From contig CDROCS010005134.1 in the NCBI GenBank assembly GCA_977020255.1, positions 124,001 to 188,000 of the forward strand: 64,000 nt of DNA, in the 5' to 3' direction. The notes beneath the pieces were generated by a model. It worked only from the letters and a program-made list of their open reading frames with translations. It ran no database searches and had not been told where the DNA came from. Source of the stretch: Obrimoposthia wandeli. Lineage: Eukaryota. Position 1 is the stretch's first letter. Every line of letters starts with the position of its first letter. A program made the translations under genes and the position numbers. Of the stretch, positions 2,781 through 64,000 are shown one piece after another.

Positions 2781-5171
2781 TAAATAGTCCAATAGAAAAT
2801 GCAGATCAAACACCATTACAATCCATAAAATGGGCGATAACACGGTTTCTATTAGAACTACAGTATAACTAAATGTGATTCGGTTTTTCTAAACTAGCTG
2901 ACGATAATTCACGTCTTGCAATCATTTCAGGTCTATTATTACAAACCGTTCAAGAGTGTCTAGAAGATATAATTATGAAATCATTCAAGAAAAGTGGAAT
3001 CATTCTAACGCGCTTGTTGGTATAGAAGACGTTTCCAAAAGGGCAACTCGTGTGAGGTTACGCAAACCGGTTTGCGTAAAACAAAATGTGTGAAAACTGT
3101 TCTTGGAGGTGCTTATTCGGATAACAGGCGTAAATAAACTTGGTATAATACCTTCACTGATTATGTTTCTATAATATATTTACTGTTTGCCTGTAATTGC
3201 GAAAGTAATTCGGTCAGTTTGTATTCATACAGTTTATATGTATATTTAAGATTCGTATCTAATATCAGAAAGTAAGAAAGCGTCTTATTTACGGGTATAT
3301 ACAGACTAAAATGTGATCAAAAATTCATGTAAAAATATTACATAATTAGTTAGAAATAGTAGCTATTAAGATGGATCTCGAAAACTGTTCACATATTTTA
3401 TGTGTTATATTGCTTAACGTTAATGAACAGTCATCCAATAACTAATCTTTGATGATTCCAAAATTATGTTGTGGGTTTAAGAATGTGAAAAAATATGAAA
3501 CATTACATTTCCACTGTACTGCATCTAATTTAATGAAGGAGCAAACAAGAACATTGTAGAAAATTAGGCATAATATTATTTTAAAAAAAGGTTTAATTAA
3601 TTTTTTTCTAAATTTCCCTCTAATTCAAATGTTACTCATTTGCCAACAACCTTAATGACTCTAACTAATGACCTTAATCAATGCCATTTAACGAGCCAGT
3701 TGATTCTACTGAACATAAGAAGAGAAACTTAGCCAGCAAAAACTTTGCGATAAAACAGTCTACCACTCTCATTTCTTGTTCTTTGTTTCATCGATATTTC
3801 AGGAAAAAGGGCAATAATCGGGATTAAATTTATTTCTCTACTTAACATTAAAACCGGAATTCGATATCATCATGAAAGATTAAATGGCAATAAAATAAAA
3901 AAAGGATTAGAGCAAAATTTAGTTGGATGTTGTAACGAGTTAAAATCAGCAATTAAAAAATAATAATGAAGTAGGAAATGTTTTTAGAATCGTATAATCA
4001 ATTTCGGTTGACAGCTATGTTCAGATTCCTTCAATTTTATTTTATATTTGAAGTATATCATTAATAATTTTTATGGTGTATTTTATCAAAACGGAAAGTG
4101 ATAATTTTTTTTTTGGTTCATCCCACATCGCAAGTTATACTTATCAAAAATGGCCCACTAGGCATTCGTATTAAATCGCGCAAATCCAATGAAGAAAGCC
4201 ACACATCGTACGCATTTAAAAATTGAGAATAACATTACATCAATAGTATTCATTCACAGTATATTGACTTGCTTTGCCAAATTCAATGACAGGTTTACTT
4301 TTATGTAAAAATCTGTTTTATTTTAATCTAAATCTTTATAGGAAAAATAATTTTATCAACCATTTAATTTGTACAAAGAAATTCTACAAAATGTTAACTA
4401 ATTTTTAAATATAAATTAATTGAACTAAATTATTATCATTTTTTCTTTAGAATTTCGATTCTAACAGTAGTTAGTCTGAAATTTTTAAAATGGTTTCTAA
4501 ACAATCTAAATATAATCACATAAAAAACATTTTCACATACTAATCTTCTTCAAAAGTTCAAATAAAAATACTGACCCGTTTTCAAGAAAAAAGACTACAA
4601 AATTTGATCAAATAGGAAAAAAATAAGAGTAACCTTCAACATTTTGATATGAATAAAGATATCATATGACCTTTAAATATATTTATTATATCAATCTATA
4701 TATATCAATATATTGCATTAATTCTATAATAAAATGAACTATTTTATTGCAAATGACTTTGGAACTTAATTAGTTCATGAAAGTTTAATGAAAACTTCGA
4801 ACAACTAACAAAAAGGTATTATTCAGTTAATTTATAATATTTGTATGTCTCTTTTAAACGTTTTAGAACTAATATTGAATTTAAATCTATGTTTGATGCC
4901 AATTTTGGATTAAACATATCTTAAAGTATGAAATGATAATTTATGTTTAATGATAAGAAGACATTCATATAGAAATTTAATTGATAATACATTGTATTTT
5001 ATTGTTTAAAATGCTGTAATATAATTAAGACTATTTGATTATTTGAATGCAAATTAACTATTTAATTAATATTAAAATAAATGTATCATTAGCATATTTT
5101 TAAAAAGATTTATGCAGATACAAACATTGATTTAAAGTGGTACAGAACCTTCAAATATTTCAAATATTTAA

Positions 5172-48260: not shown

Positions 48261-49607
48261 AATTGCTTGAAATATTTCTAAAGGCATGGATCGTTTGTTT
48301 GCAGTGAAACCGAAACAGAAGAACAGGTTGAAGCTGAAAATAAGTTGGATCCCCAAAGCAATACAACCTACTTTCAGGTGTGAAACAGACACAGAATATG
48401 AAGACAATTTTAATGACATAATTACATAATTTTGTGCATTTTAATCATTTTTGTATTTTTTACATTTGAAGATTTAAAAGTTCTAAAAATATTTTAACTA
48501 CAAGAAAATTGTTAAAATATCTAAAATTTGGATTACATAACTATTACTTTTAAAAAAACATACTCGAAACCATGTAACAGTTATTCAATTCCATTTGTCC
48601 GAGAATGAGTAATTCCTCACACGCAAACACGAGTTAACCTCACACGATTTTGGCATTAAATCATACACGCATTTCACAATATTTACACATACCGTTTGCT
48701 GTTTGCATGATATTCTCCAATCTATAATTGACGGTTTAAATATATATTTATATAAAAACTTAATAATTTAATTTCATATTTATATAAAAACTTAATAAGT
48801 TAATTTCACTGCAGTTTATCTTCATAAGCATGTTTGTATCATTTATATTATTAAAAAACTTATTTTTGAATTGATTTCTTATAATTAATATAAGTAGATA
48901 TAAGTAGAATTCTTGGAATATAATACTAGAGTCCCTTTTTAATGAAGAAAGTTTAAAGTTTGAGAATAAGTTGATGGCGTTACATCTTCAATACTCCTAA
49001 TCATTCGTTTTACCAAATATCACGCTGGTAATGAAGTAATACAGTTAGCCGATGTAATTTGGTATTCCTGGTTTGATGACTTTGTTACTTTGGCTTCTTT
49101 AATCTCTTTCCCTAATGCTGGGAATATATATTATCTTTAAGTCTATTAAACAGTTTCTGAAAGCGCCTGAAAGCAAATGTCTTCAAAATAAGCTTTGTGA
49201 AGATGACATACGGTGTTTTCATTGGACCTCAGAATACAAAATAACGTATTAGTATAAGTGAACATTTAATTAAGCTACATTGACTACAAATCAATACCAG
49301 AATTGAATATAATATCCTAATTAGAATCAAAAAATGTATTCTTTCACATAAGGCCGACTATGTAAATGATCTTCTCGAGCCTACTGTAGAACATGTATAT
49401 ACATCTTAGGAGCAACGATGATGACTACAGATTGGTCAAGAAGTTCTCTAAAACAAACAAAGTGATCAAATATTTGAAATTTGTGCACTAAATCTAAACA
49501 AAGATGTACTGATGAATATAAGAAACTGTAACAATATTGTAAAATTTAAGAAACAGCTATAGACTTTACTATTTAGAAAATAATTCGAAAAAAAAGAAAA
49601 CATAGAT

Positions 49608-49703
49608 AGTAGGTGGATGTGTCCGGTCTTATCCACACCCCCTCCCCCCTTTGTCCTTTAAAACCGTGCATGTGTGTGAAGTGAAATTTCGTTTAGGTGT
49701 GTA
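49608..49703 (+). repeat. Polinton left TIR
   Basis: Matches the reverse complement of 16945-17040. It is preceded by ATAGAT (49602-49607), the predicted 6-bp TSD. Confidence 0.9.
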
Positions 49704-49864
49704 GAAAAATTTTCTACCCCCCCTCCCAAACACTCAAAAAAATAATGAACTCCATATAACACCCTTTAAATTTAAAAATCTCATAATGCTCCCAAAATTT
49801 TGATTAAATTTTTAATTAAATTTTAATTAAATTATTTATATGTTTAAATTTTATTAATGTTTTT

Positions 49865-50575
49865 TTGTTGCAGGAACCAATACAATTAACTGAGGAGACA
49901 TGGGCCAAAATTTCTCCATTCCCTAAGAAAAGGATAAAGCGGGCAGAGGTGAAGAAGACGAGGCGCTCGAGAAAATTTCGCACCTCAATTGGCCATTATT
50001 CTGAGGCGGTGATTGGCCTGCAGGAGATTCTCCCATCTCCAGTGGACGACGGTCCAATTTTATACGAGAGGATCCCAGTCTCGCCGATCGAGATAAGTCC
50101 GCCCTCGAGTCAACGACGCCTGCAGGAGACTGTTTCTCCTCGTCCAACAACCAGCCAGAACTTGAAGAGGGCCTGGGATGACGCTGGTTTGGACGAATTC
50201 CTGGCGGAACTGGATACATCGGCAATGCTTCCAGATTTGCGTGGGCAACAGGATGCCGTCTCACACCAGCTTCAGCGTGAGAAGGAGGAGAAACAGAAGA
50301 AAGCTCCGCGGAAGAGGAAGGCTACTGCTTCTACGTCGGGGCCATCAACATCGGCTGTACCTCCGCCCAAAATGTTGCGGCAACTATTGCCAAAACCCGA
50401 GGGAAGGACAATTGCTACAAAGCAACCGGTGAAGCGGAAAAAGAAACCGGGCCGGCCAAAGAAGAAGGAACCAGTACCGCTTTCTCCAATTATACTAAGT
50501 CGGAGGGATTACGACCCGGATGATCCCAATGATGACTTCGTAAAAATGTTCAAAAATATAATTTACAAAAATTAG
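49865..50575 (+). CDS. Polinton accessory protein, basic/Pro-rich, AT-hook-like motif
   Basis: A 236-codon GC-richer ORF containing KKPGRPKK, NLS-like clusters and several SP sites. There is no in-frame ATG at the start. The start may be a splice acceptor (TTGCAG|GAA at 49873) or an ATG at 49857 displaced by a T7 run. Confidence 0.75.
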   Translation: MLQEPIQLTEETWAKISPFPKKRIKRAEVKKTRRSRKFRTSIGHYSEAVIGLQEILPSPVDDGPILYERIPVSPIEISPPSSQRRLQETVSPRPTTSQNLKRAWDDAGLDEFLAELDTSAMLPDLRGQQDAVSHQLQREKEEKQKKAPRKRKATASTSGPSTSAVPPPKMLRQLLPKPEGRTIATKQPVKRKKKPGRPKKKEPVPLSPIILSRRDYDPDDPNDDFVKMFKNIIYKN

Positions 50576-50868
50576 TTTCTTGTGTTGTTTTTTTATTATT
50601 ATTTATTTTAGAATTTAGTAATATTAAAATATACTACTTAAGTTTATTAAAATAACAAGATTAAAAATAAAGTTAACTTATTCGAATGTGATTGGATTAT
50701 TAAGGAATAATTTCAATTTTTTTAGGATTAAATATAAATGCAATGATTAGTTATATATTTATTAAACTTTCATTTGATAAATATATTTTAATTGCTTGTG
50801 ATTGGATTAAAAATATCTTAAATTTATATATATAGGTTCAAATTTATAAATATCTTCATAATTAAAAA

Positions 50869-51252
50869 ATGGAATTTATTAAATTGCAAAGTTTGGTGAC
50901 GAAGATCGAGGCAAACATAAGAATAAATGAGAAGAAAGGAGACATAAGAAAGAGGGTCCTCAACCAGAATTTGTATACTGCTGTCGCGACCGAGTGGAAT
51001 CGTCGGGTGGAGATTCAGGACAGGCGGCTAGCAGAACGACGTCGGGTCGTGGAGTGGAACAAGAAAATCAAAATGGAAAAAAAGAAGGTGGAGGAAAAAA
51101 GAAGAGAAGAGACGGAGGATGTTCGGCGAGCAGCAAGAAAGCGAATCCTCCAGATTAAACCGGAAGAGGGTCCTTCCACAAATTTTTTTTTTATTGATTA
51201 CTTTGTCTTTATTCATTATGTTATAAAATTGTCTAAATATAAAATTGTCTAA
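50869..51252 (+). CDS. Polinton accessory protein, charged helical
   Basis: ATG ORF rich in K/R/E. TATAAATA lies at 50845 and ATTGG boxes at 50691 and 50801. Confidence 0.7.
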   Translation: MEFIKLQSLVTKIEANIRINEKKGDIRKRVLNQNLYTAVATEWNRRVEIQDRRLAERRRVVEWNKKIKMEKKKVEEKRREETEDVRRAARKRILQIKPEEGPSTNFFFIDYFVFIHYVIKLSKYKIV

Positions 51253-51335
51253 ATACTACCTCGTTATTTTAATAAATTGTTGATTAACAGTTTTTCGTTA
51301 AAAAACAACGGGATTTGCTACAAATTTGGGTAATT

Positions 51336-51824
51336 ATGCAGGAATATATCATAGATTTTGAGGCTTTCATTAACAAAAATGGGGATTATATTATAAAAGA
51401 ATTATGTATTATGGATGTATGCGCCGTTTTTCATCCTTTGCATTTCATATTTCATATAGATATCCCATTTAAAAGTTTAGATTATAAGAAAAAATTTACT
51501 AATTTATATCTAACTAAATATTTCCATTTATTAAAATGGATAGAAGGACATAAGGCTTTTTGTGAAATATGTATTTTCGATACTATTAAATCTAATTTTG
51601 ATATTGTAAATGGAATTTTTTATGTTTTAGATGAAATGGATGGCCAAAAATATAAGACTTTAAAAAAATATTTTCCTAAATTGAGGTTGAATACTTTAAA
51701 TATTTCACGTGATCATCTATTAAAAATTCCACAAAATATTTGCTGTCCATATCGTAATCATGGTGACCATTGCGCATATAAAAAATGTTTAAGTCTTTCT
51801 TATTATTACTTGACATGTAGATAA
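51336..51824 (+). CDS. DEDD/RNase H-fold-like protein with Cys/His-rich C-terminus
   Basis: The N-terminal YIIDFEAF...YIIKELCI resembles an ExoI DxE strand-hairpin, and the C-terminus reads CCPYRNHGDHCAYKKC. The first ATG is at 51336. Confidence 0.6.
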   Translation: MQEYIIDFEAFINKNGDYIIKELCIMDVCAVFHPLHFIFHIDIPFKSLDYKKKFTNLYLTKYFHLLKWIEGHKAFCEICIFDTIKSNFDIVNGIFYVLDEMDGQKYKTLKKYFPKLRLNTLNISRDHLLKIPQNICCPYRNHGDHCAYKKCLSLSYYYLTCR

Positions 51825-52090
51825 ACAATTATTCTAATTGGAGGAATTCATTATTAAAATTTTACAATTATTTACAAATAAGCCTTTTGATTGGAGGAAT
51901 AAAATTATTTTTTCAACCAATAACAGATAAACAATCCTTCTCTTTAATAGGAGGAATAAAATTATTTTTTCAACCTATAATAGATAAACAATCCTTCTCT
52001 TTAATTGGAGGAATAAAATTATTTTTTTCAACCAATAACAGATAAACAATCCTTCTCAGTGGAGGAATAAATTCAATTTTTTAATCCAAT
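51820..52090. repeat. 57-bp tandem repeat (3 full plus 2 partial copies) with CCAAT and AGATAA motifs
   Basis: GGAGGAATAAAATTATTTTTTCAACCAATAACAGATAAACAATCCTTCTCTTTAAT begins at 51893, 51950 and 52007, with partial copies at ~51840 and 52061. Confidence 0.9.
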
Positions 52091-52127
52091 AGGAAAAGAG
52101 CATGTGTGCATAAATTTTAGTATATAA
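52086..52127 (+). promoter_or_regulatory. CCAAT plus TATA promoter
   Basis: CCAAT at 52086 and TATATAA at 52121, 48 nt before the ATG at 52169. Confidence 0.6.
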
Positions 52128-52168
52128 GCAAACACTTTCTTAATTTAAATCCCCGATAATTTGAAATA

Positions 52169-53090
52169 ATGCCTATGGTAAGAATTTATTTTTATTATTT
52201 CCTTATTAATATTTATTATTTCAGATTACGTGTAACCTATTCCCTGCATATTGTGGTGCTTCGGCTCCGCATGGAGGGGAGACCTGCATGGAGACAATGT
52301 CTGCATACTATCGGACAAAGTCTCGCGGGCTTCACTTCTTCGTCTGCCCCTTCTGCAGAACAATGGAGGAGAAGGAGTTTCGAGACTTCTTCAGTGAACA
52401 TCGAGCTCACCTATCGTGTTTCACGGCCAACAACAAGAAGAGGGATATCGTGCAATTGGTGCGCAATTCGCAGGCCACTCCAGCTCCTGCTCCAATTCCA
52501 GTTGCAGTCGATCAACCCTTTTACGGTCCTGCCATTGGTCCTTCTCTCCCGGCTCCTGATTCTGCTGCTGCCCCATCCACTCAAATGTCTAACAATGAGT
52601 GGATGAATGACATATCCGAAGAAGATTTCACGGAGTTGGCGCCAGCAACCCAATTCTCAAACAATGACTGGATGCGAAATATCACCCAGTCAGATTTCGA
52701 GATGGAGCAGCCTCAGTGGAGCGACAACAGCTGGTTGGAGACCATCGAGGAATCCAATTTTGTCGAGTCAACGGACGACAGCTGGATGGATTTCGTCAAT
52801 GAAGAGGACTTCATTCCAGCTCAACTTGGATTGCCATCATTAGGTATTTTTTTATTTTTGTAAATTGTAATTATATATTTTATTTTTTATTATATATTTT
52901 TTATTTTTATTTTTTATTCAGGAAGTACCATGATACAGCCGTCATCCGATAGGACAGCTATGCCTCCCCCATCTCGAGTGCCTACATCGATGTTAGCACG
53001 CCTAAGAGGTAATTTTTTAAAATATATTTATTTTTTAATATATTAATTTCAGCACATGCATATCGACGTCCACAACAGTCGCTTCAATGA
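52169..53090 (+). CDS. four-exon gene, 250 aa: Cys/His-rich N-terminus, Pro/Ala linker, 4 acidic Trp repeats (putative transactivator)
   Basis: Exons 52169-52177, 52225-52843, 52922-53008 and 53053-53090. Three AT-rich GT-AG introns (47, 78, 44 nt) join in frame to 753 nt ending in TGA. Confidence 0.75.
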
Positions 53091-53096
53091 CATCAG

Positions 53097-53693
53097 CTAC
53101 TGATGATCGAGTGTATTTTTGTCGCTGACGACATTATTCAGTTTCTTTAGAGTGCTCGTTTTCGGTACTGTGATAATCTGTTTTACTCTTCTCGGTTCGT
53201 TGCTGCCCTTCTTCGGTTTGACTTCTTTCACAAACGTCACCGTTACTGACTCAAAGATGTCGCCCACCTTCTTGTCTGGCGTTTCGTCTGGGAATTTCAG
53301 GCCAGTTTTCGTGATTCTGTTTGGCTTCTTCGGCTTCTTGCCCTCACTGATTCTTACCACGATCTTCTTGTTTCCTGTAGTCAAGACCAAACCGTCTTTC
53401 GGCTTTTTGGGATTTGGTCTCAATTTATCTTCGTCTTCTTTCGTTACCTTTGGTGTCACTTTGATGTCAGTCAGTCTCTTGAGTGACCATACAAGCGCAT
53501 CATCTGCGAAACCAGCATTAGTTGCCTCACCTACAACACGAGCTGCAATTGCCTCAACATCGGCAGCACCTGCTACAGTAGCCCCTTCAACATCAGCTAC
53601 GATTGCCTCAACATCGGCAGCATCAACAATAGCAGCACCTTCAACCTCAGCTGCGATTGTCTCAACTATTAATATAAATAGTTGTCTTCCCGT
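53097..53693 (-). CDS. Ala/Val/acidic-repeat plus Lys/Pro-rich ORF (coding strand uncertain)
   Basis: Open stop-to-stop for 198 codons (VETIAAEVEG...KKPK...), with no ATG. The + strand frame 53119-53796 is also open. Confidence 0.45.
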   Translation of the reverse strand, partial: TGRQLFILIVETIAAEVEGAAIVDAADVEAIVADVEGATVAGAADVEAIAARVVGEATNAGFADDALVWSLKRLTDIKVTPKVTKEDEDKLRPNPKKPKDGLVLTTGNKKIVVRISEGKKPKKPNRITKTGLKFPDETPDKKVGDIFESVTVTFVKEVKPKKGSNEPRRVKQIITVPKTSTLKKLNNVVSDKNTLDHQ

Positions 53694-56600
53694 TCAATTA
53701 GGGGAGGTTTGTCAGCGACAAACGGAAGAAAGAGGCGAGGCCAATTTCTTAATAAGGTCCCACCCAAAAAACGTAGAGAAAACGGTGCTACTATAGAGTA
53801 TCACCTAAATAATAAATATGTTATAGTTAAGGTGCCATTAGGAAATGAAATTTTATTAAACGTAGGTGTAGATTCAAATATTGAAAATCTTTTAAAATCA
53901 GAAGTGACTAAATTAGGACAGGCTAAGGTTCAATTTTGCGCAACAGTGCAGTTTAAAAATGTCAATGAGGAAACTAAAACTTGGGTAATTTCACATAAAG
54001 CAACTGTTTTTTATGATAATTTTGTAACTGAAATTGGAAGAAACCTGGATGAAAAAATTGCTAATTATAGCGAGTTAAGTAGTGGATGGACTCTAGTTAG
54101 AATTCACGATGTTAGCTTTGTTCTAACAAAGTTCACTGACATGATATATCTTTCGGGGAGTTCATACATTCCTTCACCTAGATCTCTTCAACTTTCACGT
54201 TCCATTGTTAACGTACAAAACAGTGATAACCTTTGCTTTCTGTATAGCGTGTTGGCCATCCTCAAAAGGGATGTAATTACTGAGCATAGAGAGCGTGTCA
54301 GTAAATATACCCCTTTTTTAAATGAATTGCAGTATCATGGAATAGATTTTCCTGTTAAATTAACTGCGATATCAAGATTTGAACATCTTAATAACTTGAG
54401 TATTAATGTATTCAAATATAATACTGATATCCCAGTTAATGTAACAGATGAAGAAATTTTTAAAAATCCTTTTGTAGATGTAATTTATAGGAGCAAAAAT
54501 GAGGGGACTCAGGTCAACTTAATTTTGCTCGAACATGATAAAAAATTCCATTATGCTGCAATTCCCAGTTTAGATCGTCTTCTAAATTTAGATAATGGAG
54601 CCTTACCGGTTAGGATAAGGTGTAAGTGGTGTCATAGATGTTTGCATGGGTTCCGATCCGAGCTCTCTTACAGCAAACATCTGACATTATGTTCACTGAA
54701 TCCTGATGACAATACGCTATATAGCATGCCTTAGGATAAGGATTTAAAATTCAGGGATTGGGCAAAATGCATACCCGTGGAATTCAGGGTGTATGCAGAT
54801 TTTGAGTCAATTTTAGCATTGCACGACCAGTATGAGAGTATTCACCTACCGGCTTCGGCAGGACTACTATTCTTAGGCCCCAATATTACCCAGTATCATA
54901 AATTTTCCGGTCCAAATTGTATTTTAAATTTTATGTTAAAATTAGAAGAATTAGGAACAACAATTGTCAAACCGTGGTATGATCTCAATGCTCATCAAGC
55001 AATGATCATGACAGGCATAGACTGGGTTAATTTTAATTCTTGTAGATTATGTTATTTGTGTGGAACCCAGTCTAAGTTAGTCAGAGATCACGATCATGTT
55101 ACGGGGCGATACTTGGGAGTGGCGTGCAACCTTTGTAACCTTGGCCGTCGTCTCCCTAAAAAACTACGCATTCCCATCGTGTTTCATAACCTCAAAGGAT
55201 ATGATTTGCATCATATACTTAAATACGCGTTGGGTACATTAAGCTCTTGGGAAATTTCATGTATACCTCAAACTTCAGAGAAATATTTATCTTTAACTGC
55301 ATATACTGAATTCTGCAGTTTAAGATTCATAGATTCTCTGTAGTTTTTGAGTGGTTCTTTAAAAAATTTAACGGCATCTATAAATGCATGGCCAATTACA
55401 CAGTCAGTGTTCCCAGCTTCGGTTAACGATAAGGGGATTTTTCCGTATAAATTTGCGAAAACCTTTGCAGATTTAGAAAATACAACTGAAATCCCACCCA
55501 TAACTGCATTTGAAAGTGTAAGTCTTCAAGACTATAATGAGGCCGGTACATTTTGGGTGAATAATTTTCGAAATCTTCTCGAATATATGCTTTATTATAT
55601 GAAGTTAGACATTTATCTTTTAGCTGATGTTTTTGAGTCCTTTCGTGTAAAGTTTTTAGCAGAAGATGGGCTAGATCCCATGCATTTCTTTAGTTTACCT
55701 GGTCTTTCATGGGCAACAGCAATAAAAACTATTAAAATTAATATCGAGTTACTGCAAGATCCCGCGATGTATCAAATGTATGATTATGGTATACGCAGTG
55801 GAATGACTTTTGTCAACAAACATCATGTTGTCAAAAATCAATCCACGGAGATTCTGTACATCGATATTAATAATTTGTATGGGTGGGCGCTTACTCAACC
55901 TCTACCTCATGCCAACTTTAAGTGGGTTTAAGATGTGGATCAGTTGAATAAGTTGATGACAGATTTGGCTACTGTTGATACAGTTTCATCCGACGTCGGC
56001 TATTTGGTTGAGGTGGACATAAAAATCCCTCCCAATGTGCATGATAAATTAGATGATCTTCCAGTAGCGCCTGTTCATCAATGCCCACCTAATTCAAAGG
56101 TTAAGAAATTATTGTTAACCCAGGAAGACAAGTTGAATTATGTTGTGCATTGGCGGCTTCTTCAATTCTACTTAAAGTTGGGAGCGAAAGTTACTCGAAT
56201 TCATCGTGCTATAAGCTTCAGTCAAAACTTTGTGTTTAAAGACTATATTGAGAAGAATTCTAGAAAACGTAATTTGGCCACTAGCAAATTCGATCGGGAT
56301 TTTTACAAGTTAAAAAGTAATAGCCTCTTTGGAAAAACTGTAGAGGACTTGCGGAAACGTATTTGTCTACGGTTTTGCAATGATGAGCGTAAACTAATAA
56401 CATATACTAGCAAGTACAACTTCAAGCGTAGTTTTACAATTGCAGATGACTTGGTAGCAGTGTTATTAGGAAAACAGAGTATTTGTCTCGATCGACCGAG
56501 TTATATAGGTCAAACGGTTTTAGACATTTCTAAACTCAGAATGTATGAGCTTCAATACAAAGAATTGGATAAATACCGACAAGAATTTAACTGTGAGATC

Positions 56601-57083
56601 AAAATCGCGGCAGGGGACACTGACTCTTTCTTTTTATAATGTAGGAATGTTAGTTTAAATAATCAATTATTACCAGCAATGTTTAGGGACAACTTACTAG
56701 ATACCCATAAATATCCCGCTAACCATCCTCTACACTCTATGAGTTTAAAGGATATTATCGGGAAATTTAAGTATGAAAGCGAGGGACAAGTTTCGTATGA
56801 TGATTGTATTTTCCTACGCCCTAAATGCTACAGTTTACATGCATCTAATAATACATGTTCAATGAGAGCAAAGGGTGTGGGAAAAAACAATCTTACACAT
56901 GAGGCCTACCGGAAAGTTTATGATACTGGGTGTATTGAAAGCGTTGAGCAAACTAGATTTATTTCAAGAGCCCATCAACTGTATTCCCATAAATCAACAA
57001 AAATCGCTTTGAGTAGTAATGACGACAAGCGCTTTTGGGTAGAAAAGAACGCTAGCCTGGCTTATGGACACTTCCGAATTTAA
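53682..57083 (+). pseudogene. protein-primed DNA polymerase B (pPolB), 4 in-frame stops
   Basis: All five track ORFs share one frame. Motifs: YADFES (ExoI), FHNLKGYD (ExoII), CYLC..DHDH.TG..C..CN, YIDINNLYG (A), KLKSNSLFGK (B), DTDS (C), KCY. Stops at 54732, 55341, 55929 and 56637. No ATG at the N-terminus. Confidence 0.97.
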
Positions 57084-57359
57084 ACGGTTTTCATTTATTT
57101 GATTTTTTTAGTTTAGTTTTTTAAAATTTTAGATCCCTATGGCACCTAGACTCTAACTTACTTGTTATTTCAATACTTTTTTAGGATGGACCTTATTTAT
57201 TATGCCTTATCTTTGCTGACATATCTCATTGTGATGTTGTGATTAATAAATGTATTAAAAAAAATTGTCTTATGTCTTTTATTATTTTACCCTTATATTT
57301 TTAGAGATTTAAAAAATAATTAAAAATAAAACATTAAAAATATTTATTTTTATAACACA

Positions 57360-57740
57360 CTAATCGTTTTGCAACGATAACCATAAAATACATAAATGTC
57401 CACAGTTTCTCGTCGCAGGATCCTGATATTGTATCTTGTTGTAAAATACTCTTCTTCGGCCTTTTTGAATAGTCGAAACAAGTTTGTGTGGATAATACAT
57501 TGCACGTGGATCAAATACATGTTTTGTCCACTCTCTAACATAAATAGCTATCCAATGTTCTCCTGGTAAATTCGAAGTATGAGTATTGATAATGTAACCT
57601 CCAGATTGAAAAAATGGAATCATATCAATAGGATAAACTCCATTGAATTTATCACCCAGGACCTTCTCTGCTGATTCTTTTACTTGTTTTGAACTAAATA
57701 AAAATTAATAAATATAAATTTAAAATATGTCTTACTCCAT
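57360..57740 (-). CDS. adenain-like (C5) cysteine protease, two exons
   Basis: ATG GA|GTAAG...TTTAG|T with a 42-nt intron at 57735-57694 gives MDSKQVKESAEKVLGDKFNGVYPIDMIP...GEHW..VFD..YQ..NCGHLC. The catalytic His, Asp, Gln and Cys are present. Confidence 0.9.
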
Positions 57741-57741
57741 T

Positions 57742-58971
57742 CTATAATATGACAGTTCTGTTTTTATTGATTTGTATTTCTGAATCAAATATTCCGTAAA
57801 TAAGCACCGTAGTAGGATTTGTTAAAGCTGCATTGAACTTAATTTCTAGTCGTAAATTTCCATCCTTTGGTAGTTGGCATTGGTTTATATCAAAGTCTGG
57901 TGCCAAAACGAATGTGAAGAACGAGCAGCTGCTTTTAAACTCAGTGAAAGAAATACCATTGTTTATGTTTTTATCTAGTTGGCCCAAATTCCGAATAATA
58001 GATTGCGTATAAGCCAAAGCATAAGCGTTACCTTCGAAATCTGTTTTATATGTTTCGCGATAATCAGTGTTTCTTGAAAGTGTCACTGAACCTACACTAA
58101 GATTGTCAAATTGAGTTGCATCTGTCGTATAATTTCCTAGAAACTTTGCAGTTTTTTGAAAAGAAATTAAAATGAATTTCGGTAATCTTACATCACCAAA
58201 TATTTGATCCTTATTAAAAGCTTGTGTACCCGTACCTAAAGAATAAGATATAAGTTTAGTTTCTCTAATAGGATAACAAGCATTGTTTTTTTCCATTCCT
58301 ATATTATGTGCCATTAAAACTGATTGCTCGGTTTTAACTCTTCGAACATACAATTTTGCATCCAAAATATCAAGTCTAGGTTTTAAAACGTCCGTGCTTA
58401 TCAAAGAAAAATTCCATTTATTACGTTTCAAACGAAGATGTACATTAACACCGGGGATTATATATTTCGGTTATTCAAAGAAATTCAATCTCAAAGACCC
58501 ACACATTTCGTAAGCTTTAGAACCTGCAATCCATTCTTTGTGAGTTGCAACAGTTTTATCATAACCAATGGTTGCCAAATTAGTATTTTGAGTATCAGTA
58601 CTATAATTCAAAAGACTTTCAATCAAAGCTTTATGAGCATAGGAAGAATTTCCACCTTCAATTTTGACATTATTAAGAGTAACAATGGCATCATTAAATA
58701 AAGAATTAAAGAGATAATTTACAGGTGTTACATCGGCATTTTCATCTAAATTAGTACCATCCCGATTTAATACTTTTATTTGAACATAAAGCAAAGTATC
58801 ATTCAAATCTAAATACTCGCTATTGGAACCATTAATATTAAATTCTAAATCAGTTAAAGTGATTCCTGAAACTGAGTTAACTAGGAATATTTCTTCAAAG
58901 GAAGCATTATCTACAATTACTTGTGGAAGTGGTTTATCAAAAATACACAATTCAGTTTTGGCGCAACTCAT
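57742..58971 (-). pseudogene. major capsid protein (double jelly-roll), one in-frame stop
   Basis: MSCAKTELCIFDKP...DLNDTLLYV...NYLFNSLF...FFE*PKYIIPGVNVHLRL...KVRR...LRLEIKF...VLIYG. The two ORFs share a frame, and the TAA at 58471-58473 sits at the usual Gln position. Confidence 0.92.
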
Positions 58972-59345
58972 TTTGCAAATATTGTTCCTTCAACATTCTT
59001 ACGTTTGTTTATATTGATTTTTTGCTTCTTTTTACTTTTAAATCCACTACCTCCTTGGCTTTTATTTGATTTACGTTTTCTAATCAAATTAGCAACTTCA
59101 GGTAAAACATTATCAAGTTCATCAAGCGCATGCTTCTTAAAAGTTGGTATTAGTTTATTGTCCTTAGATGAAAGATAGTCCTTTCCTAATTTTGATATAA
59201 ATCGCCCGAGTCTCTTTAAAAGAGGAAAGGCAAATCTACCTAATGTTCTAAGCCAGCCAGATCCGTATTGTTTGCCAACAAAATATGGTAATTCTCCACC
59301 TTGTTGGCTTTGACTATAAGCTTCAATTATTGCTGGATTCGCCAT
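58968..59345 (-). CDS. putative basic/amphipathic virion core protein
   Basis: QQGGELPYFVGKQYGSGWLRTLGRFAFPLLKRLG is an amphipathic helix after QxG motifs, and the tail is Lys-rich. It lies between the minor and major capsid genes. Confidence 0.75.
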   Translation of the reverse strand: MANPAIIEAYSQSQQGGELPYFVGKQYGSGWLRTLGRFAFPLLKRLGRFISKLGKDYLSSKDNKLIPTFKKHALDELDNVLPEVANLIRKRKSNKSQGGSGFKSKKKQKININKRKNVEGTIFAK

Positions 59346-60383
59346 TTTGTTTTCTTAAATGTATTGTTAAACTTGTCTTGGCCCCGTACGTGAAATCTAT
59401 TAGTTGTCCTGAATCATCTCTAATATTTACTTCAATATTGTTTATAGAAAAGAGAGAAACTGGAAGATACATTGGTTGATCTATACACATACCGGCAGTG
59501 TCCCCATCTCTAGTTTCATTTTTAGATATCCATATTGTTCTCAAAAGTGGAACTCGTTGTCCTCCTACAAGCGTTGGTTCTATTAAATTAGTATAAATAT
59601 ATAAATGATTAACAGCATTTAAAGGTTTTGCCTTATTTTTAGCTTTTATGGTTTTTATTGTATGGGTTTCAAAGGTATTTCTGTTTAAATCAAGGTTTTT
59701 AGCGAGTTTATCATCAAATAAAACTCGTATTATATTGCTCTTTACTGTAAACGTTATTTTACCATTTTTTAATGTTACACATTTATCAAAATCTTCACTA
59801 CATTCCTTCTGTATTAATTTACAGAAATTCACTTCACTATCTAATTTATAATCTTTTGAAAACATTTTCCGTTCCACTACAATCTTAGGTCTCGTTTCAA
59901 CTAAAAACACTTTTGTTACTTTATCAGGAACATTTTTAAACGATTTAGATGAGACTATATCAGATCTCTTCATACCTACTACATGTCCACTATCAAAACC
60001 AAATTTAAGAGCTTCTCTATCAGATCCAAATATAAGTTGAATAGGTTGAAAATGTTTTGATCGATTTTTAAATCTGACTTTGTTTTTTCATATATTACTT
60101 TCACTTTTTTATCTATACAATTGTAATAGAATTTTCCTTTACTATCAAACCCAATCATAACTTCAATTGATTTTTCATGATCAACTTCTTTTGTAAACGA
60201 AATATGTGAGTTTTTTCTGATAGTAATTGGAGAATAATAAAAGGAAAATTCTGTTAAAGCCGCTTCCCATTCTCCTTGGAGATTTATAGGATTTTCCCAA
60301 ACGATAATAAAGCTACTAGCGTAATTATCTAGTTGAGTCTTCGGACATCCGTTACTAGGTAAAACCATATACATAGACTTCAT
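59323..60383 (-). pseudogene. minor capsid (penton-like) protein, one frameshift
   Basis: N-terminus YMVLPSN...PINLQGEWEAALTEF and C-terminus YIYTNLIEPTLVG...PLLRTI...IEVNIRDDSG...TIHLR. The frame switches at the T6 run 60083-60088. Confidence 0.88.
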
Positions 60384-61408
60384 ATTATATTAGATGCTGA
60401 TATCCAAGTTGGGTCTGAATAACCATGCCATTTAACAAAGTATTGTTTATGTTTACCTGTACCCTTAGATTTTAATATTTTTTGAATACGGAAAACGCTA
60501 GGTTTATTTGATATTACTTGTAGTTCTTGCTCGTAAAATTTACCGTGAACGATATTATTGTCAGCATCTTTAATAGTATACATTATTGGATTACTCTTTT
60601 GATCAATTTTACTTATACAAAATATTTCATCGCTCTAATTCTGATCAAAGTTTTTGATAAATGGAGTAGAGCTAATTTTCGAAATTCGAACATATTCGTT
60701 TTTCTTATATTTAGCTTTTTTAATTTTTTCTTTTTTATTTCTGTTCATCCAAATGTCCATAGAGTTTTTATTAGTAACATCAACAGGTCTCATTCCCTTG
60801 AGACCTCTATGTTCAGAGTGATTATATGCATGTATTATTTTAGGTAAAACTTGGATTCATTTTTTATTTCCTTCTTTTGTGAAATACTTTTTTATTCGAT
60901 CTCTTAGAGTACGATTAAATCTTTCTACTACTGCTGCTTTGTATTGTGAAAACACAGAGTAATGATTTATATTATTTTGTTTAAATAATGATTGAACTTG
61001 CTTATTATAAAATTCTTTTCCTAAATCAGTTTGCACATTTTGTGGAATGTCCTCTTTTAATATTTCTTTAATGGCTTCAAGCATAGCTATTGAAGACTTT
61101 GCTTTAACTGGAATTGCACGAGCAAACCTGCTAAATACATCAATACATGTTAAAATATATCGATATCCCTTATTAATGGAAGAATATGGGATCATCTCCA
61201 TCAAATCCATTTGCCATAAATTATTAGGACCGCTGGTTTTGTAAGCTCTAGTTGGAAACCTTCTTCTCATCGGCTTGTTCAGACTGTAGGCTAATTGGTC
61301 GCTGAGCCATTTCTGCGTTTTCTTGTAATTTTGTTTTGTTCTTTTTGCTAATTTTGAAACTCCTGTGTAGCCAATTGGATCTTTTGGATTGAACCATATC
61401 TTCTCCAT
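60380..61408 (-). pseudogene. retroviral-like DDE integrase with C-terminal chromodomain, 2 in-frame stops
   Basis: ATG at 61408 (MEKIWF). DDE motifs WQMDL, QTDLGKEF and VVERFNRT, then the chromodomain QYFVKWHGY. TGA at 60857 and TAG at 60635 both replace expected Trp codons. Confidence 0.95.
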
Positions 61409-61494
61409 TACAACAATTTGAATAGAAAGAAAATTTAAGTTTAGGTAAAGAAGAGCTAGCACCCATATCTTTAGCTGATTTTATAAATAATTGT

Positions 61495-61823
61495 TTATGA
61501 ACGTGTCGCAGCTATAATACTACTGATAATTGAAGCAACAACTGGAATAACAGCCCCTATGAAACCACCATTCTGTTTAAGAATAATATTTCGTTTTCTT
61601 TTTTACTTTTTACATTAGCAATATCTAGAAGAGTTTTTCTATATTTCTTTAATATATTTTTCCGATTTCCAACTTTTACTCGACCCAAAACTATATTATA
61701 CAAAACTTCCAATAAATCATCTACAACAAAAGATGGAAATGCTTTAAGAATAATAATTCTCTTATGAGAAGAGGCTTTGACTAAAGCTTTAAAATAGGGT
61801 ATGCTTCTTTGTATTTTCTTCAT
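61495..61823 (-). pseudogene. conserved small Polinton protein with pX-like hydrophobic tail, one frameshift
   Basis: One A added to the A6 run at 61599-61604 extends the 88-aa ORF into KRKRNIILKQNGGFIGAVIPVVASIISSIIAATRS*. Confidence 0.75.
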
Positions 61824-61838
61824 TTTAATAAAAAAGGT

Positions 61839-61994
61839 TCAATTTAAATATTGTTTATATTCGAAGCCATTTAAGTTTTTTTTATTTTTAACTACAGATT
61901 TGATTAATTTTTTAACTTCTTTTTTCTTAATGATTCTTTTTTTTGATTTCTTAGGCTTTGCTTTACGTTTTACTATCAACTTCGTAAAAGGCAT
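61839..61994 (-). CDS. 51-aa highly basic protein (below track cutoff)
   Basis: MPFTKLIVKRKAKPKKSKKRIIKKKEVKKLIKSVVKNKKNLNGFEYKQYLN has 20/51 K+R. It fills the gap between the ATPase stop (62002) and the next ATG (61823). Confidence 0.7.
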   Translation of the reverse strand: MPFTKLIVKRKAKPKKSKKRIIKKKEVKKLIKSVVKNKKNLNGFEYKQYLN

Positions 61995-62001
61995 TATAAA
62001 T

Positions 62002-62649
62002 TTATCTTTTATGATTGTTCTCTATTTGTTTATAAACAATTACTCCCTTAGAATTAAATATGTCTGTTAAAACACGTAAATCATCTGGGCAAGCTTGTGT
62101 AAAGTCAATAAATGTATACCCATGTGCTTGTTTAGCAGCATCGTGGAATGAATCAACTAGAAAGTTCTTATTTTGAGGAAATGCCTGTCTGGCCACAAAA
62201 TCAACAACTGTTTGATCTCTAGGATTTTTAAATAAAACTAAGTAATGTACATTAAGATTTCTTGTTCTATGGTGACCTCCTTGGTGAAACAGATTTTGAG
62301 TGATAAATATAACTGTTACTTCACGATGTCTTGCAATCTTTGTAAATAAATTATTAAAGTCCGATTCCTTGTTAGCATCCTCATACAAATCATCAATTAT
62401 TATTACATCTTCTTTTTTCAATCTTTCACACCAATTTGCATCAAATCCTTCAATAAATTGTATTCTCTTCAACTTGCAAACTTCTGTTTTGGTTAACCCG
62501 CTTTCCCCTCCTCCACCATGATGCCAATAAATATTTTTGAAACTAGATTTGAAAAGAGATTCATTTTGCAACAATTTACAGACGAAATGTGTCTTTCCAC
62601 TTCCACTAGGGTCAACTATTTGAAATACAGCATTATTATTTAGCTCCAT
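62002..62649 (-). CDS. A32/FtsK-like packaging ATPase
   Basis: Walker A DPSGSGKT (first Gly is Asp), Walker B IIIDD, and FTKIARHR..FITQNLF. Confidence 0.93.
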   Translation of the reverse strand: MELNNNAVFQIVDPSGSGKTHFVCKLLQNESLFKSSFKNIYWHHGGGGESGLTKTEVCKLKRIQFIEGFDANWCERLKKEDVIIIDDLYEDANKESDFNNLFTKIARHREVTVIFITQNLFHQGGHHRTRNLNVHYLVLFKNPRDQTVVDFVARQAFPQNKNFLVDSFHDAAKQAHGYTFIDFTQACPDDLRVLTDIFNSKGVIVYKQIENNHKR

Positions 62650-62686
62650 TGCATATACTCTTTCATTTTTAATATTGTTTATATTA

Positions 62687-62959
62687 TCATAGAAGTTTCC
62701 TTATTGAAATGTACAATGTTAGAGCTATTGTAGATGAAATACAAAAATTAATTAATGAATATTTGGCTATAATTTTATTTATTTGTGTACGATTTCTAAA
62801 TTCTCGAATAACGTGTGATCTAACCAATATTTCAACGTTATCTCTTGTTATATCATTATTTTTTAATTCTGATAAAATTTCTTTACCCCTAATTTTTCCA
62901 GAAAATATTTCGTCGGCAAGCAGATCCACTTCATTGTCTCTATTTATAGTATTATTCAT
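62687..62959 (-). CDS. hypothetical protein with C-terminal hydrophobic segment
   Basis: A 90-aa ATG ORF colinear with its neighbours, ending YSLINFCISSTIALTLYISIRKLL. Confidence 0.6.
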   Translation of the reverse strand: MNNTINRDNEVDLLADEIFSGKIRGKEILSELKNNDITRDNVEILVRSHVIREFRNRTQINKIIAKYSLINFCISSTIALTLYISIRKLL

Positions 62960-62987
62960 TCAAAACAATAAGTTTAAACGGGTTTGT

Positions 62988-63475
62988 TTATAGAAAAGAT
63001 AACAAGATGTAATAAGATATATTTTTTAAAATCAAATCAACAATGTCTGGATAATCAAAATTTTTCAATCCCAATATCATAACTTTACCACTTGAAAATA
63101 TATTTACACATAGCGGTTTAAACTTCAAATAACTGAGAGCAGGAAAAATTTCTGGTTCAAACATGCATTCTTCTTTCATTTTCTCTGCAGTTTTAAAAAG
63201 ATTTATCTGTTTCCCAAGATTAGCCGAAATCGTGATTGCAGTGATTCGAATTCCAAATGGTAAATTGAACCCAAGCATTGGTATTTTGCATCCCATAACA
63301 CGACAATTTCCTAAAAGAATTCAATATGAAAATAAAAAAACTAACCTGTAGAAAAAATAACAACTGTAAAATTGTCAAACTTTACGACATATTGTCTCGG
63401 CTTCCATTCATTGAATGGTAAGTACGAAACATCATCTTCTGTTCTACCTTTATAATTTATATTTACGAGTTTCAT
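62988..63475 (-). CDS. TATA-binding-protein-like protein, two exons, 150 aa
   Basis: Exon 63475-63346, a 35-nt GT-AG intron at 63345-63311, then exon 63310-62988. VIFSTGNCRVMGCK and FEPEIFPALSY...VNIFSSGKVMILGLK match the two TBP repeats (LIFSSGKMVCTGAK; YEPELFPGLIY...LIFVSGKVVLTGAK). Confidence 0.88.
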
Positions 63476-63505
63476 TAGTCTGAAATTGTATTCTGTAAAA
63501 TCTTC

Positions 63506-63693
63506 TTTATATATGTCTGAACCTGCTTTTTTATTGCACGTTTCTTGTAATTATCTTGCAAACCTATTATAATTGGATGATATATTTCTTCCAATCAATT
63601 TTGATTTTTAATATAGATTTAGTCCAATCAAATTCAATGCTTTAGTTATATTAACCAATGAGATTCATGTCTTTGTTAGAAATTAGTATAAAA
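63506..63693. promoter_or_regulatory. divergent TATA/CCAAT promoter
   Basis: Minus-strand TATATAAA at 63513-63506, ATTGG at 63572, CCAAT at 63591, 63624 and 63655, and plus-strand TATAAAA at 63687. Confidence 0.6.
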
Positions 63694-63724
63694 GAATGTG
63701 CCATTGGAGGACAAATCACAGTAA

Positions 63725-64000
63725 ATGCATTCATATCAAAGACAATTATCAACGATGGACGATAGCCAACGGGTATTAAGCGATGACGAAGAAATGTTTG
63801 AAGAATCGGATAAGGAAATGTATGAAGAAGTGAAACAATATTTCAAATACAAAGTCAGATTCTTGAAGAAGGCTCAACTGATTGCTTTAGTAAATCATGT
63901 GACAATTGAAAGAAGAAAGTTCAGCTACTATCTCATAGGTATTCAAAAACCTGATTTTCAATATCTTAAACAGAAAATAGAAAAGGCAGTTCCAAATTTT
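63725..64000 (+). CDS. hypothetical protein, partial (runs off window)
   Basis: MHSYQRQLSTMDDSQRVLSDDEEMFEESDKEMYEEVKQYFKYKVRF... is open for 92 codons to the end. Not in the ORF track. Confidence 0.7.
   Translation, partial: MHSYQRQLSTMDDSQRVLSDDEEMFEESDKEMYEEVKQYFKYKVRFLKKAQLIALVNHVTIERRKFSYYLIGIQKPDFQYLKQKIEKAVPNF

Follow-up and report, generated by a model that had tools for sequence, protein, structure and literature searches.

A minimal TBP and two promoter classes suggest an early-to-late switch in Polintons of Obrimoposthia wandeli

A Polinton in the genome of Obrimoposthia wandeli likely runs two promoter classes as an early-to-late switch, in which a minimal TATA-binding protein (mini-TBP) encoded by the element itself is predicted to read a dedicated box, YATAAACR. 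The element, most of which lies in positions 49608..64000 of the 64,000-nucleotide stretch analyzed here (the window), is a decayed Polinton of approximately 15.5 kb belonging to a multi-copy family. To our knowledge, Polintons/Mavericks have no RNA polymerase of their own. We found nothing in print on how they time their genes, nor any paper describing a Polinton mini-TBP that reads a dedicated late box. At the level of sequence, such a box and the protein that likely reads it would be evidence of a virus-like early/late cycle, and transcripts starting just 3' of YATAAACR would provide a simple marker for active elements in RNA data.

A match of approximately 97 bp between the left end of the element (49606..49702, plus strand) and its right end, which lies beyond the window (L031:~3040-3136), indicates the presence of terminal inverted repeats. 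Pfam searches identified a protein-primed DNA polymerase B (pPolB; PF03175, E 2e-7 and 2e-9), an rve integrase with a chromodomain (PF00665, E 1e-13), an A32-type packaging ATPase (PF04665, E 3e-5) and a weak double-jelly-roll capsid match (E 0.06); the penton and protease genes had no Pfam match, and the gene order is kept in relatives. The morphogenesis block lies on the minus strand and contains a putative maturation protease (57360..57740), assigned by position and by a motif that we presume to mark it; the putative major capsid protein (MCP), to which the double-jelly-roll match belongs (57742..58971, one in-frame stop); a basic core-like ORF (59345-58968) and a frameshifted penton-like gene (60383-59323), both assigned by position and conservation; and the integrase (60380..61408, two in-frame stops). 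It continues over 61557..62959 with a small conserved ORF (61823), a small basic ORF (~61994), the packaging ATPase (62649-62002) and ORF 62959. The five GT..AG introns of the original prediction are complete, as predicted from sequence, and their splice sites are kept across copies: the three in the polymerase gene (52178-52224, 52844-52921 and 53009-53052) in 28, 27 and 29 of 29 copies, respectively, the 42-nt protease intron (57735-57694) in 17 of 18, and that of mini-TBP (63345-63311) in all 29 scored rows, which include the window copy (the remaining one of 30 rows did not align).

The proposed TBP-like gene was borne out by a match to PF00352 (Pfam, E 1e-11). It is located on the minus strand (62988..63475) and has two exons, with the ATG at 63475, an intron of 35 nt and the stop codon at 62990-62988, spanning 150 codons in the window copy and 153 in most copies; the reading frame is open in 16 of 29 scored copies. 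The model of a homologue, P0003, had a pLDDT of 90.8, and its Foldseek matches in the PDB at E<=0.001 were TBP chains; together with the Pfam match, this model indicates that mini-TBP adopts the TBP saddle fold. None of the matches listed for 62700-63700 against four contig sets (one sample) contained the joint at the mini-TBP intron, which has no bearing on expression.

Mini-TBPs comprise 58 representatives at E<=1e-30 and 77 full-length members, and 19 sampled sequences formed one side of a 100/100 branch, with cellular and other two-repeat TBPs on the other side; the host genome contains a canonical TBP of its own, plus TBP paralogues. Neighbors at 81 outside mini-TBP loci, most of them short, included the ATPase in 31, the integrase in 20, the MCP in 12 and the end of pPolB in 8. 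Four Polinton families in this genome carry mini-TBP, and between families dN was 0.32-0.50, as compared with a dS from 1.6 to saturated. Judging from these comparisons, mini-TBP forms a distinct family among the genes of Polintons, and purifying selection acts on it. A TBP-less Polinton family was sought in the same genome as a close control, and none was found, all four readable families carrying mini-TBP; one further pPolB copy (L255) is too fragmented to be placed as with or without it. Scans of viral contigs yielded no confirmed relative with the TBP exon, one weak match (30%) with the TBP alignment, and no match with the ATPase, either as a single sequence or as an alignment.

The residues of mini-TBP combine conservation with remodeling. 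Three intercalating Phe are kept in 76, 77 and 77 of the 77 members, the fourth having no identifiable equivalent, and the TFIIB-contact residues of the acidic stirrup are Glu in 70 and 75. Conversely, the DNA face differs from that of canonical TBP by V80 to Arg (76 members), T82 to Met (77), L163 to Asn (77) and V29 to Asn (66), as well as by N117S/T, with first-repeat residues placed by motif anchors rather than by superposition. The spacer bearing helix H2 of the first repeat is 21 aa long as compared with 32-33 aa in cellular TBP, and most of this helix is missing. We take H2 to be the site of several TBP partners and inhibitors, and its loss would free mini-TBP from several host TBP partners. 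Two complete symmetric repeats, four Phe and a canonical Asn/Thr/Val/Leu DNA face are thus not found in mini-TBP.

The TATA boxes claimed before 50869, 52169, 63475 and 63725 are indeed present, at -38 to -48, and the CCAAT boxes claimed are enriched, as compared with shuffles, upstream of 50869 and 52169 and between 63475 and 63725. The promoter of the polymerase gene (51837..52128, plus strand) contains six CCAAT, partly in tandem repeats (as high in 1 of 300 shuffles), and TATATAAG at 52121, whereas the divergent region 63476..63724 contains TATATAAA at 63513 on the minus strand, TATAAAAG at 63687 on the plus strand and five CCAAT (0 of 300); the two sites before 50869 were equaled in 15 of 300 shuffles. 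Canonical TATA counts alone are weak in this AT-rich DNA, with 37, 160 and 15 of 300 shuffles as high. Canonical TATA and CCAAT boxes occur upstream of the TBP, pPolB, left-arm, 50869 and orfR1 genes, and a canonical TATA precedes 27 of 56 mini-TBP genes, at a distance like that of the YATAAACR sites of ATPases. The split between promoter classes is not strict, as a sister family has a hybrid TATATAAACA upstream of its pPolB gene. The TATA/CCAAT promoters listed originally are the canonical class, and not the one that mini-TBP would most likely read.

A second box, YATAAACA, was absent from the original prediction and occurs once upstream of each gene of the morphogenesis block. These nine sense boxes (57960..62992, minus strand; 5' ends at 57967, 59013, 59446, 60451, 61499, 61859, 62034, 62683 and 62992) compare with 0.9 expected, and there is none in 49608-57100. 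Each is kept in 93-100% of 15-18 copies, although several fall within the coding sequence of the gene upstream, so that constraint on the protein could contribute to their conservation. Over the whole window, YATAAACA occurs 21 times versus 15.9 expected; the signal is local and stranded, and we make no claim of genome-wide rarity. In relatives, sense YATAAACR lies within 120 nt upstream of the ATPase in 24 of 26 cases (antisense, 0 of 26; shuffles, 0.5), of the core gene in 6/6, the MCP, penton and small ORF in 4/5 each, the integrase in 9/15 and the protease in 2/4, but of none of 56 TBP genes. The ATPase sites are at -32 to -53 in 22 of 24, and the distance from box to ATG in the window varies from -33 to -227. 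YATAAACR preceded 78 of 237 ORFs in 17 mini-TBP loci, as compared with 3 of 273 ORFs, and 0 of 10 ATPases, in 16 pPolB loci whose fetched DNA contained no TBP. These controls are partial and from distant Polinton-like groups, ancestry is a confounder of the co-occurrence of box and mini-TBP, and the loci do not count as independent contrasts.

ATAAACA also fits the Forkhead consensus RYAAAYA, and the box could be a host Forkhead-type site timing the late genes, with mini-TBP co-occurring by shared ancestry only, which the phylogenetic confounding of the TBP-less control would allow. We consider this improbable, because the box is strand-specific and its sites cluster at the TATA distance, ATPases show no enrichment of the GTAAAYA form (2 of 26 versus 1.3 in shuffles), a pyrimidine precedes the box in 64 of 70 sites, and the last position is G in 10 of 70.

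Under the preferred reading, that of an early-to-late switch, host TBP and a CCAAT factor would transcribe the canonical-class genes, including that of mini-TBP. The remodeled DNA face of mini-TBP would then bind YATAAACR, a box with a C at position 7 that host TBP would disfavor, and the intact acidic stirrup of mini-TBP would recruit host TFIIB and Pol II, with virion and integration genes following the replication genes. The promoter classes and the conservation of mini-TBP lend support, at the level of sequence, to the early/late program that had been put forward, in which the element supplies the TATA-binding factor and the host supplies Pol II. An element-borne TFIIB was also considered and rejected in this genome, with only 12 TFIIB family matches, on 6 contigs.

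The yeast HIS3 TR element is inactive with a C at position 7 of its TATA (PMC4457894), and this base requires a Hoogsteen pair with wild-type TBP, but the C7 box is still bound (PMC13566119), as also stated in the title of PDB entry 1qn3. YATAAACR might therefore be a weak core promoter for host TBP or for one of the host paralogues, with mini-TBP acting elsewhere, for example as a decoy for TBP inhibitors or TFIIB; consistent with this, the equivalent of Leu72, named for the position-7 clash, is changed only conservatively (Ile in 36, Leu in 27 and Val in 11 of 77). Still, this is unlikely, given that a merely weak TATA would not be expected to hold C7 so strictly in lineages between which dS is saturated. 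Moreover, a decoy would not have to preserve three intercalating Phe and a non-canonical DNA face that does not vary, and the helix that presumably binds several inhibitors is precisely the part that was lost.

Mini-TBP could also bind YATAAACR as a repressor, silencing the virion and integrase genes of integrated copies or blocking host initiation, since non-productive complexes might form without most of H2 and an identifiable fourth Phe. This appears as improbable as a Forkhead site: the TFIIB-contact acidic residues are kept, unlike in herpesvirus ORF24 as described in the available text of PMC12529657, and no other activating element is evident at YATAAACR promoters, with CCAAT before only 1 of 26 ATPases.

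The pPolB gene (52169..57083, plus strand) contains exons 52169-52177, 52225-52843 and 52922-53008, with exon 4 starting at 53053. Its product would consist of a Cys/His domain, acidic-aromatic repeats and Ser/Thr/Ala repeats, followed by terminal protein (TP), vOTU, exonuclease and palm, these four inferred by position. The N-terminal region aligns with the N-termini of other pPolBs, and the TP and OTU names, given from position, also lean on Cys/His motifs that we take to mark them. The window gene is broken by a frameshift in exon 4, an insertion of ~377 nt (53114..53489), absent from the 10 copies aligned, and four in-frame stops. What had been read as a separate spliced activator gene with Cys/His and acidic repeats is, on sequence evidence, the 5' exons, or N-terminus, of pPolB: its last exon is in frame with the polymerase in 23 of 29 other copies and open through to the TP region in 19 of 29, and its early stop in the window results from the breaks in that copy. 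Likewise, the Cys/His domain, without the repeats, starts pPolB in P0159 (E 2e-10) and in a sister family with a single pPolB ORF of 1223 aa (E 3e-12). The exon had no homologues among 323 candidates of 113-361 aa because it is fused to a protein of >1000 aa. Its sequence contains no LxCxE motif, and the suggested analogy with adenoviral E1A fails on both counts. As a caution for annotation, spliced 5' pPolB exons in decayed copies can mimic stand-alone activator genes.

The AT-hook-like protein fared similarly. The ORF (49874..50575, plus strand) encodes a basic product with no Pfam match at E<=0.1 and a single GRP, which is preceded by Pro and non-canonical against what we take to be the AT-hook consensus. 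From comparison with other copies, it is what remains, as the last exon, of a family-specific, multi-exon left-arm gene that has lost its 5' ~2 kb in the window; in fuller copies, the protein encoded by the upstream exons is acidic and has two SIM-like motifs. Neither three sister families nor the 81, mostly short, outside loci yielded this gene. Across the elements compared, mini-TBP occurs with Polinton genes in outside loci, and the left-arm gene was seen in family 1 only. A control module of three genes, namely a TBP-like factor, a separate E1A-like activator and an AT-hook protein, is already largely refuted by these results and by the continuity of the pPolB frame, and seems hardly credible, even though family-1 copies do contain the three sequences together (TBP/'activator', 7 of 10 in each direction), the acidic-aromatic repeats may resemble activation motifs, and alternative polyadenylation or splicing might conceivably yield a short product.

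Three further ORFs lie on the plus strand. A charged ORF (50869..51252) has a canonical TATA (-40) and CCAAT (-68) upstream. The Cys/His-rich orf51336 (51336..51824), conserved within this Polinton group and with no match in Pfam or PDB, carries either promoter class across loci; YATAAACR precedes it in 22 of 24 other copies and is missing in the window copy. A frequent neighbor of mini-TBP, orfR1 (63725..64000, 158 aa, running on beyond the window) had no PDB match and an unusable single-sequence model (pLDDT 42); atlas leads pointed to NCLDV clusters (score 0.86; Pox_I3 in 12% of members), with recognition below threshold.

Tentatively, a large Polinton clade may possess a reprogrammed, orthogonal TBP-TATA pair, in which a minimal TBP reads YATAAACR, plugs directly into host TFIIB/Pol II and escapes host TBP regulators by the loss of H2. 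This one-protein late-gene switch, of herpesvirus-independent origin, would imply a true timed cycle of virion production. If so, mini-TBP would be a natural altered-specificity minimal TBP, probing which TBP surfaces are needed for Pol II initiation.

Mini-TBP shares with cellular TBP (PF00352; eukaryotic TBP/TRF and archaeal TBP) the two-lobed, ten-strand saddle with a complete C-terminal repeat, the three intercalating Phe and the acidic stirrup, but differs by its short first repeat, the lack of an N-terminal tail, its polar/charged DNA face and its separate long branch. TBP-like proteins of NCLDVs are also viral TBP folds, with matches in BFVD, but those among the matches listed at E<=0.001 have at least 186 aa and 7-20% identity, and NCLDVs with such proteins mostly carry their own RNA polymerase. 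The element resembles Alpha adintoviruses and Polintons-Mavericks (PMC8502044; 10.1101/2024.03.18.585575) in its terminal inverted repeats, PF03175 pPolB with an extended N-terminus, rve integrase, packaging ATPase, and putative protease and capsid genes. In the available text of Starrett et al. (PMC8502044), the sole mention of TBP is a label in the Fig. 5 legend, which concerns MELD viruses with adintovirus-like PolB; its family, structure and promoters are not analyzed there, and the main text of Krupovic et al. (10.1101/2024.03.18.585575) contains no occurrence of TBP, TATA or transcription. The adintovirus 'Oncoid' genes and adenovirus E1A, as presented in the same text of PMC8502044, are similar in having a Cys-rich sequence with acidic stretches upstream of the polymerase core, but the Cys/His sequence of the element lacks LxCxE and is fused to pPolB instead of being a free-standing ORF.

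In the late system of beta/gamma-herpesviruses, a virus without its own RNA polymerase likewise encodes a TBP-fold protein (ORF24), and late/structural genes share a non-canonical box at the TATA position (TATT there, YATAAACR here), to be read with host Pol II. We take BcRF1 and UL87 to be counterparts of ORF24. ORF24 acts as part of a complex of six proteins and contacts Pol II directly. According to the available text of PMC12529657, it needs TBP-like Phe and a polar DNA face, and the acidic residues for TFIIB contact are absent from it. Conversely, mini-TBP has ~150 aa and keeps these acidic residues, positions 1 and 7 of its box are different, and no vPIC-like partner genes were found in the element with Pfam. 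By analogy, we infer that mini-TBP would work like the herpesvirus ORF24 system while not being a member of it.

The Polinton lies in a 1.35-Gb genome, in a window of ~29% GC, and starts at ~49606 with a terminal repeat of ~97 bp, whose partner is found 1.1 kb past the window, giving a length of ~15.5 kb. Pfam matches identified pPolB, an rve integrase with chromodomain, an A32-type ATPase and TBP, plus a weak double-jelly-roll match; core, penton and protease are putatively assigned from position and conservation. The family (family 1) is multi-copy, with 93–97% identity in 40 scored matches per DNA search, the window itself excluded. The window copy is decayed, with in-frame stops in pPolB (four), the capsid gene (one) and the integrase (two), a frameshifted penton, a ~377-nt insertion and a ~2-kb left-arm deletion. 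A second family-1 copy occurs ~4 kb downstream (L031:7435-10000, in the fetched locus holding the right end), and the DNA between the two copies holds short remnants bounded by TIRs and an ORF (L031:6512-7276) that resembles a transposase by eye. Different Polinton families adjoin or nest in each other at 6/6 sampled places (L251-L268), which suggests insertion hot spots. Dozens of family-2 ATPase matches in the genome have open frames and identical scores, suggesting a recent copying burst.

Genes of the element are preceded by two classes of promoter. As originally noted, canonical TATA and CCAAT boxes occur upstream of 50869, 52169, 63475 and 63725. In a more complete copy they also precede the left-arm gene; CCAAT exceeded shuffled sequences in two of three regions, with the third borderline, but canonical TATA counts alone were unconvincing. 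The second class is defined by a TATA-like box, YATAAACR. Within the morphogenesis block we found nine YATAAACA sites in sense orientation, one per gene, against 0.9 expected, together with a single antisense site and none in 49608-57100; each of the nine is kept in 93–100% of 15–18 other copies. The same two-class pattern appears in three sister families of this genome (families 2, 3 and 4). Some YATAAACR boxes fall within the coding sequence of the upstream gene, and a hybrid, TATATAAACA, upstream of family-2 pPolB is an exception to the classes. Family 2 also contains a putative IAP-like gene (BIR-/RING-like Cys/His patterns, by eye) between mini-TBP and ATPase (L225:~310-1200), behind a TATAAACA box. 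Mini-TBP and pPolB of family 3 lie head to head, ~65 nt apart, over one (TA)n run (L252:7949-8014) that might act as a TATA box in both directions.

We also compared upstream regions of homologues from outside this genome, dropping near-duplicates and those with no assignable ATG. YATAAACR occurred within 120 nt upstream of 24 of 26 ATPases (antisense, 0; shuffle mean, 0.5), at -32 to -53 in 22 of these 24, as well as before core (6/6), capsid (4/5), penton (4/5), small (4/5), integrase (9/15), protease (2/4) and orf51336 (7/11) genes. Conversely, it preceded none of 56 TBP genes, 27 of which have a canonical TATA. The box was present before 78 of 237 ORFs in 17 mini-TBP loci, picked from 80 mainly by length. 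In control pPolB-anchored viral contigs whose retrieved DNA showed no TBP, it preceded 3 of 273 ORFs and none of 10 ATPases. The controls, 16 of the 20 returned after excluding four with only short weak matches, are distantly related and incomplete. That the box is a Forkhead site seems to us improbable beside its strand specificity and its clustering at the TATA distance before ATPases.

The TBP-like gene (63475-62988, minus strand) proved to be real; its two exons are separated by a GT..AG intron of 35 nt. Its splice sites are intact in 29/29 scored loci (30 loci, window included), with an open frame in 16/29; an intron of ~35 nt lies at this codon in one sister family too, and the gene is intronless in the other two. 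Nine metagenomic homologues (78–181 aa) show 44–54% identity; eight of them are full-length, and these align colinearly with both exons, spanning the intron position. A profile search retrieved 58 representatives at E<=1e-30, and 77 full-length single-match members were present among 158 proteins. Taking every third of these 77 (26) and dropping seven without the anchor motif, the remaining 19 formed one side of a 100/100 branch in a C-terminal-repeat tree, versus 20 two-repeat TBPs grouped by eye. Between families, dN was 0.32–0.50 for mini-TBP, with dS 1.6 or saturated, and 0.19–0.20 for the ATPase. Neighbours in 81 outside loci, mostly short, were ATPase (31), integrase (20), capsid (12), protease (12) and the pPolB end (8). 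The orfR family adjoins mini-TBP in 19 of these 81; orfR1 (63725-64000) and orfR2 (L031:1725-2715) look like paralogues, and atlas leads hint at NCLDV single-strand-binding proteins.

An AlphaFold model of the outside homologue P0003 (pLDDT 90.8) shows ten strands, the long helix at the end of the first repeat being absent, and its significant PDB matches were TBPs. The G83-Q116 spacer is short, with 21 residues versus 32–33 in seven canonical TBPs. Residue numbers are those of Arabidopsis: the ones named in PMC13566119 served as anchors, and the others were obtained by counting; first-repeat residues were mapped by motif, not superposition. Among the 77 members, phenylalanines are kept at F74 (76), F148 (77) and F165 (77), with no conserved fourth Phe seen. 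The DNA face carries fixed changes at V80 (Arg, 76), T82 (Met, 77), L163 (Asn, 77), V29 (Asn, 66), N117 (Ser/Thr, 77) and V119 (Thr/Ser, 76), L72 being little altered (Ile 36, Leu 27, Val 11); to judge from these residues, it looks like a face of changed but constrained specificity. E144 and E146, acidic residues with a role in TFIIB contact (PMC12529657), are kept in 70 and 75 members. That mini-TBP acts as a repressor seems improbable to us alongside these conserved glutamates.

The host genome encodes its own canonical TBP and paralogues, and the box might be read by one of these, with mini-TBP as a decoy. Wild-type TBP requires a Hoogsteen pair for C at TATA position 7, binding still being possible (PMC13566119), and the yeast HIS3 TR element is inactivated by C at this position (PMC4457894). 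We regard host reading as unlikely, given the strict C7 across lineages and an invariant, altered DNA face that a decoy need not keep. The canonical host gene is found twice within ~2 kb, in opposite orientations (G000:C238:871792-873993), and two intronless paralogues (contigs C60 and C1092) show 34–36% identity to the query.

The supposed separate spliced activator turned out to be the start of pPolB. Its Cys/His and acidic-repeat exons (52169-52177, 52225-52843 and 52922-53008) are conserved in 29 copies, as are three introns. In the window, a frameshift found in 0/29 other copies ends exon 4 after 12 codons. The exon-4 frame includes the terminal-protein (TP) region in 23/29, and is open up to that region in 19/29. 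Among seven longer copies, two have all detected polymerase motifs in this frame, a third stays open over 659 codons, reaching the exonuclease region, and the remaining four are frameshifted further downstream. Additionally, the Cys/His domain starts the outside pPolB P0159 (E 2e-10) and a 1223-aa single ORF in a sister family (E 3e-12), and is in frame ahead of the polymerase in families 2 and 4. In family 1 pPolB, the acidic-aromatic repeats are a feature of the linker; family 2 has a similar acidic stretch, and the two intronless examples have none. The domains of Polinton pPolB run TP-vOTU-EXO-palm, and TP is probably released by cleavage (10.1101/2024.03.18.585575), so the zinc/acidic head would remain with TP at genome ends, where, speculatively, it might act in transcription. 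At its 5' end (L225:7723-8940; G000:C790), family-2 pPolB contains two introns, a run of poly(His-Ser) and a stretch that resembles ubiquitin by eye, with no Pfam match. The LRGG that closes this stretch immediately precedes the Cys/His domain and might be cut by the vOTU that the element itself encodes.

Similarly, the presumed AT-hook ORF is what remains of a larger gene, namely its last exon; a more complete copy of this gene has four additional introns. Its product is acidic and low-complexity, with a basic tail and two SIM-like motifs. Low-complexity proteins diverge fast, and the gene was not found outside family 1 in sister families and outside loci. This disordered protein, behind TATA and CCAAT (L184:6446-7000; L144:1-1550), is, as a speculation, a candidate early antagonist of SUMO-dependent silencing. 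With a genuine TBP-like gene and two reassigned partners, the three-gene control module first proposed is very hard to sustain.

The original observation is thus confirmed in part, and its early/late interpretation partly supported. We consider it probable, from sequence comparisons, that canonical-class genes would be transcribed by host TBP and that mini-TBP would next read YATAAACR, recruiting host TFIIB and Pol II; only 12 TFIIB-family matches occur in the whole genome, indicating no element-borne TFIIB.

Among openly accessible articles and preprints, judged by titles and the openings of abstracts, our searches listed no paper on a Polinton mini-TBP or its box. In the portions available of Starrett et al. 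(PMC8502044; preprint 10.1101/697771), 'TBP' is given only as a figure label, and one supplement file gave 0 matches; the LxCxE 'Oncoid' genes described there differ from the Cys/His and acidic sequence of the window, which is not of that type. The closest working analogue of mini-TBP and YATAAACR is the herpesvirus TBP mimic ORF24 with its TATT box, although, in the part of PMC12529657 available, ORF24 lacks the TFIIB contacts, whereas mini-TBP keeps those residues.
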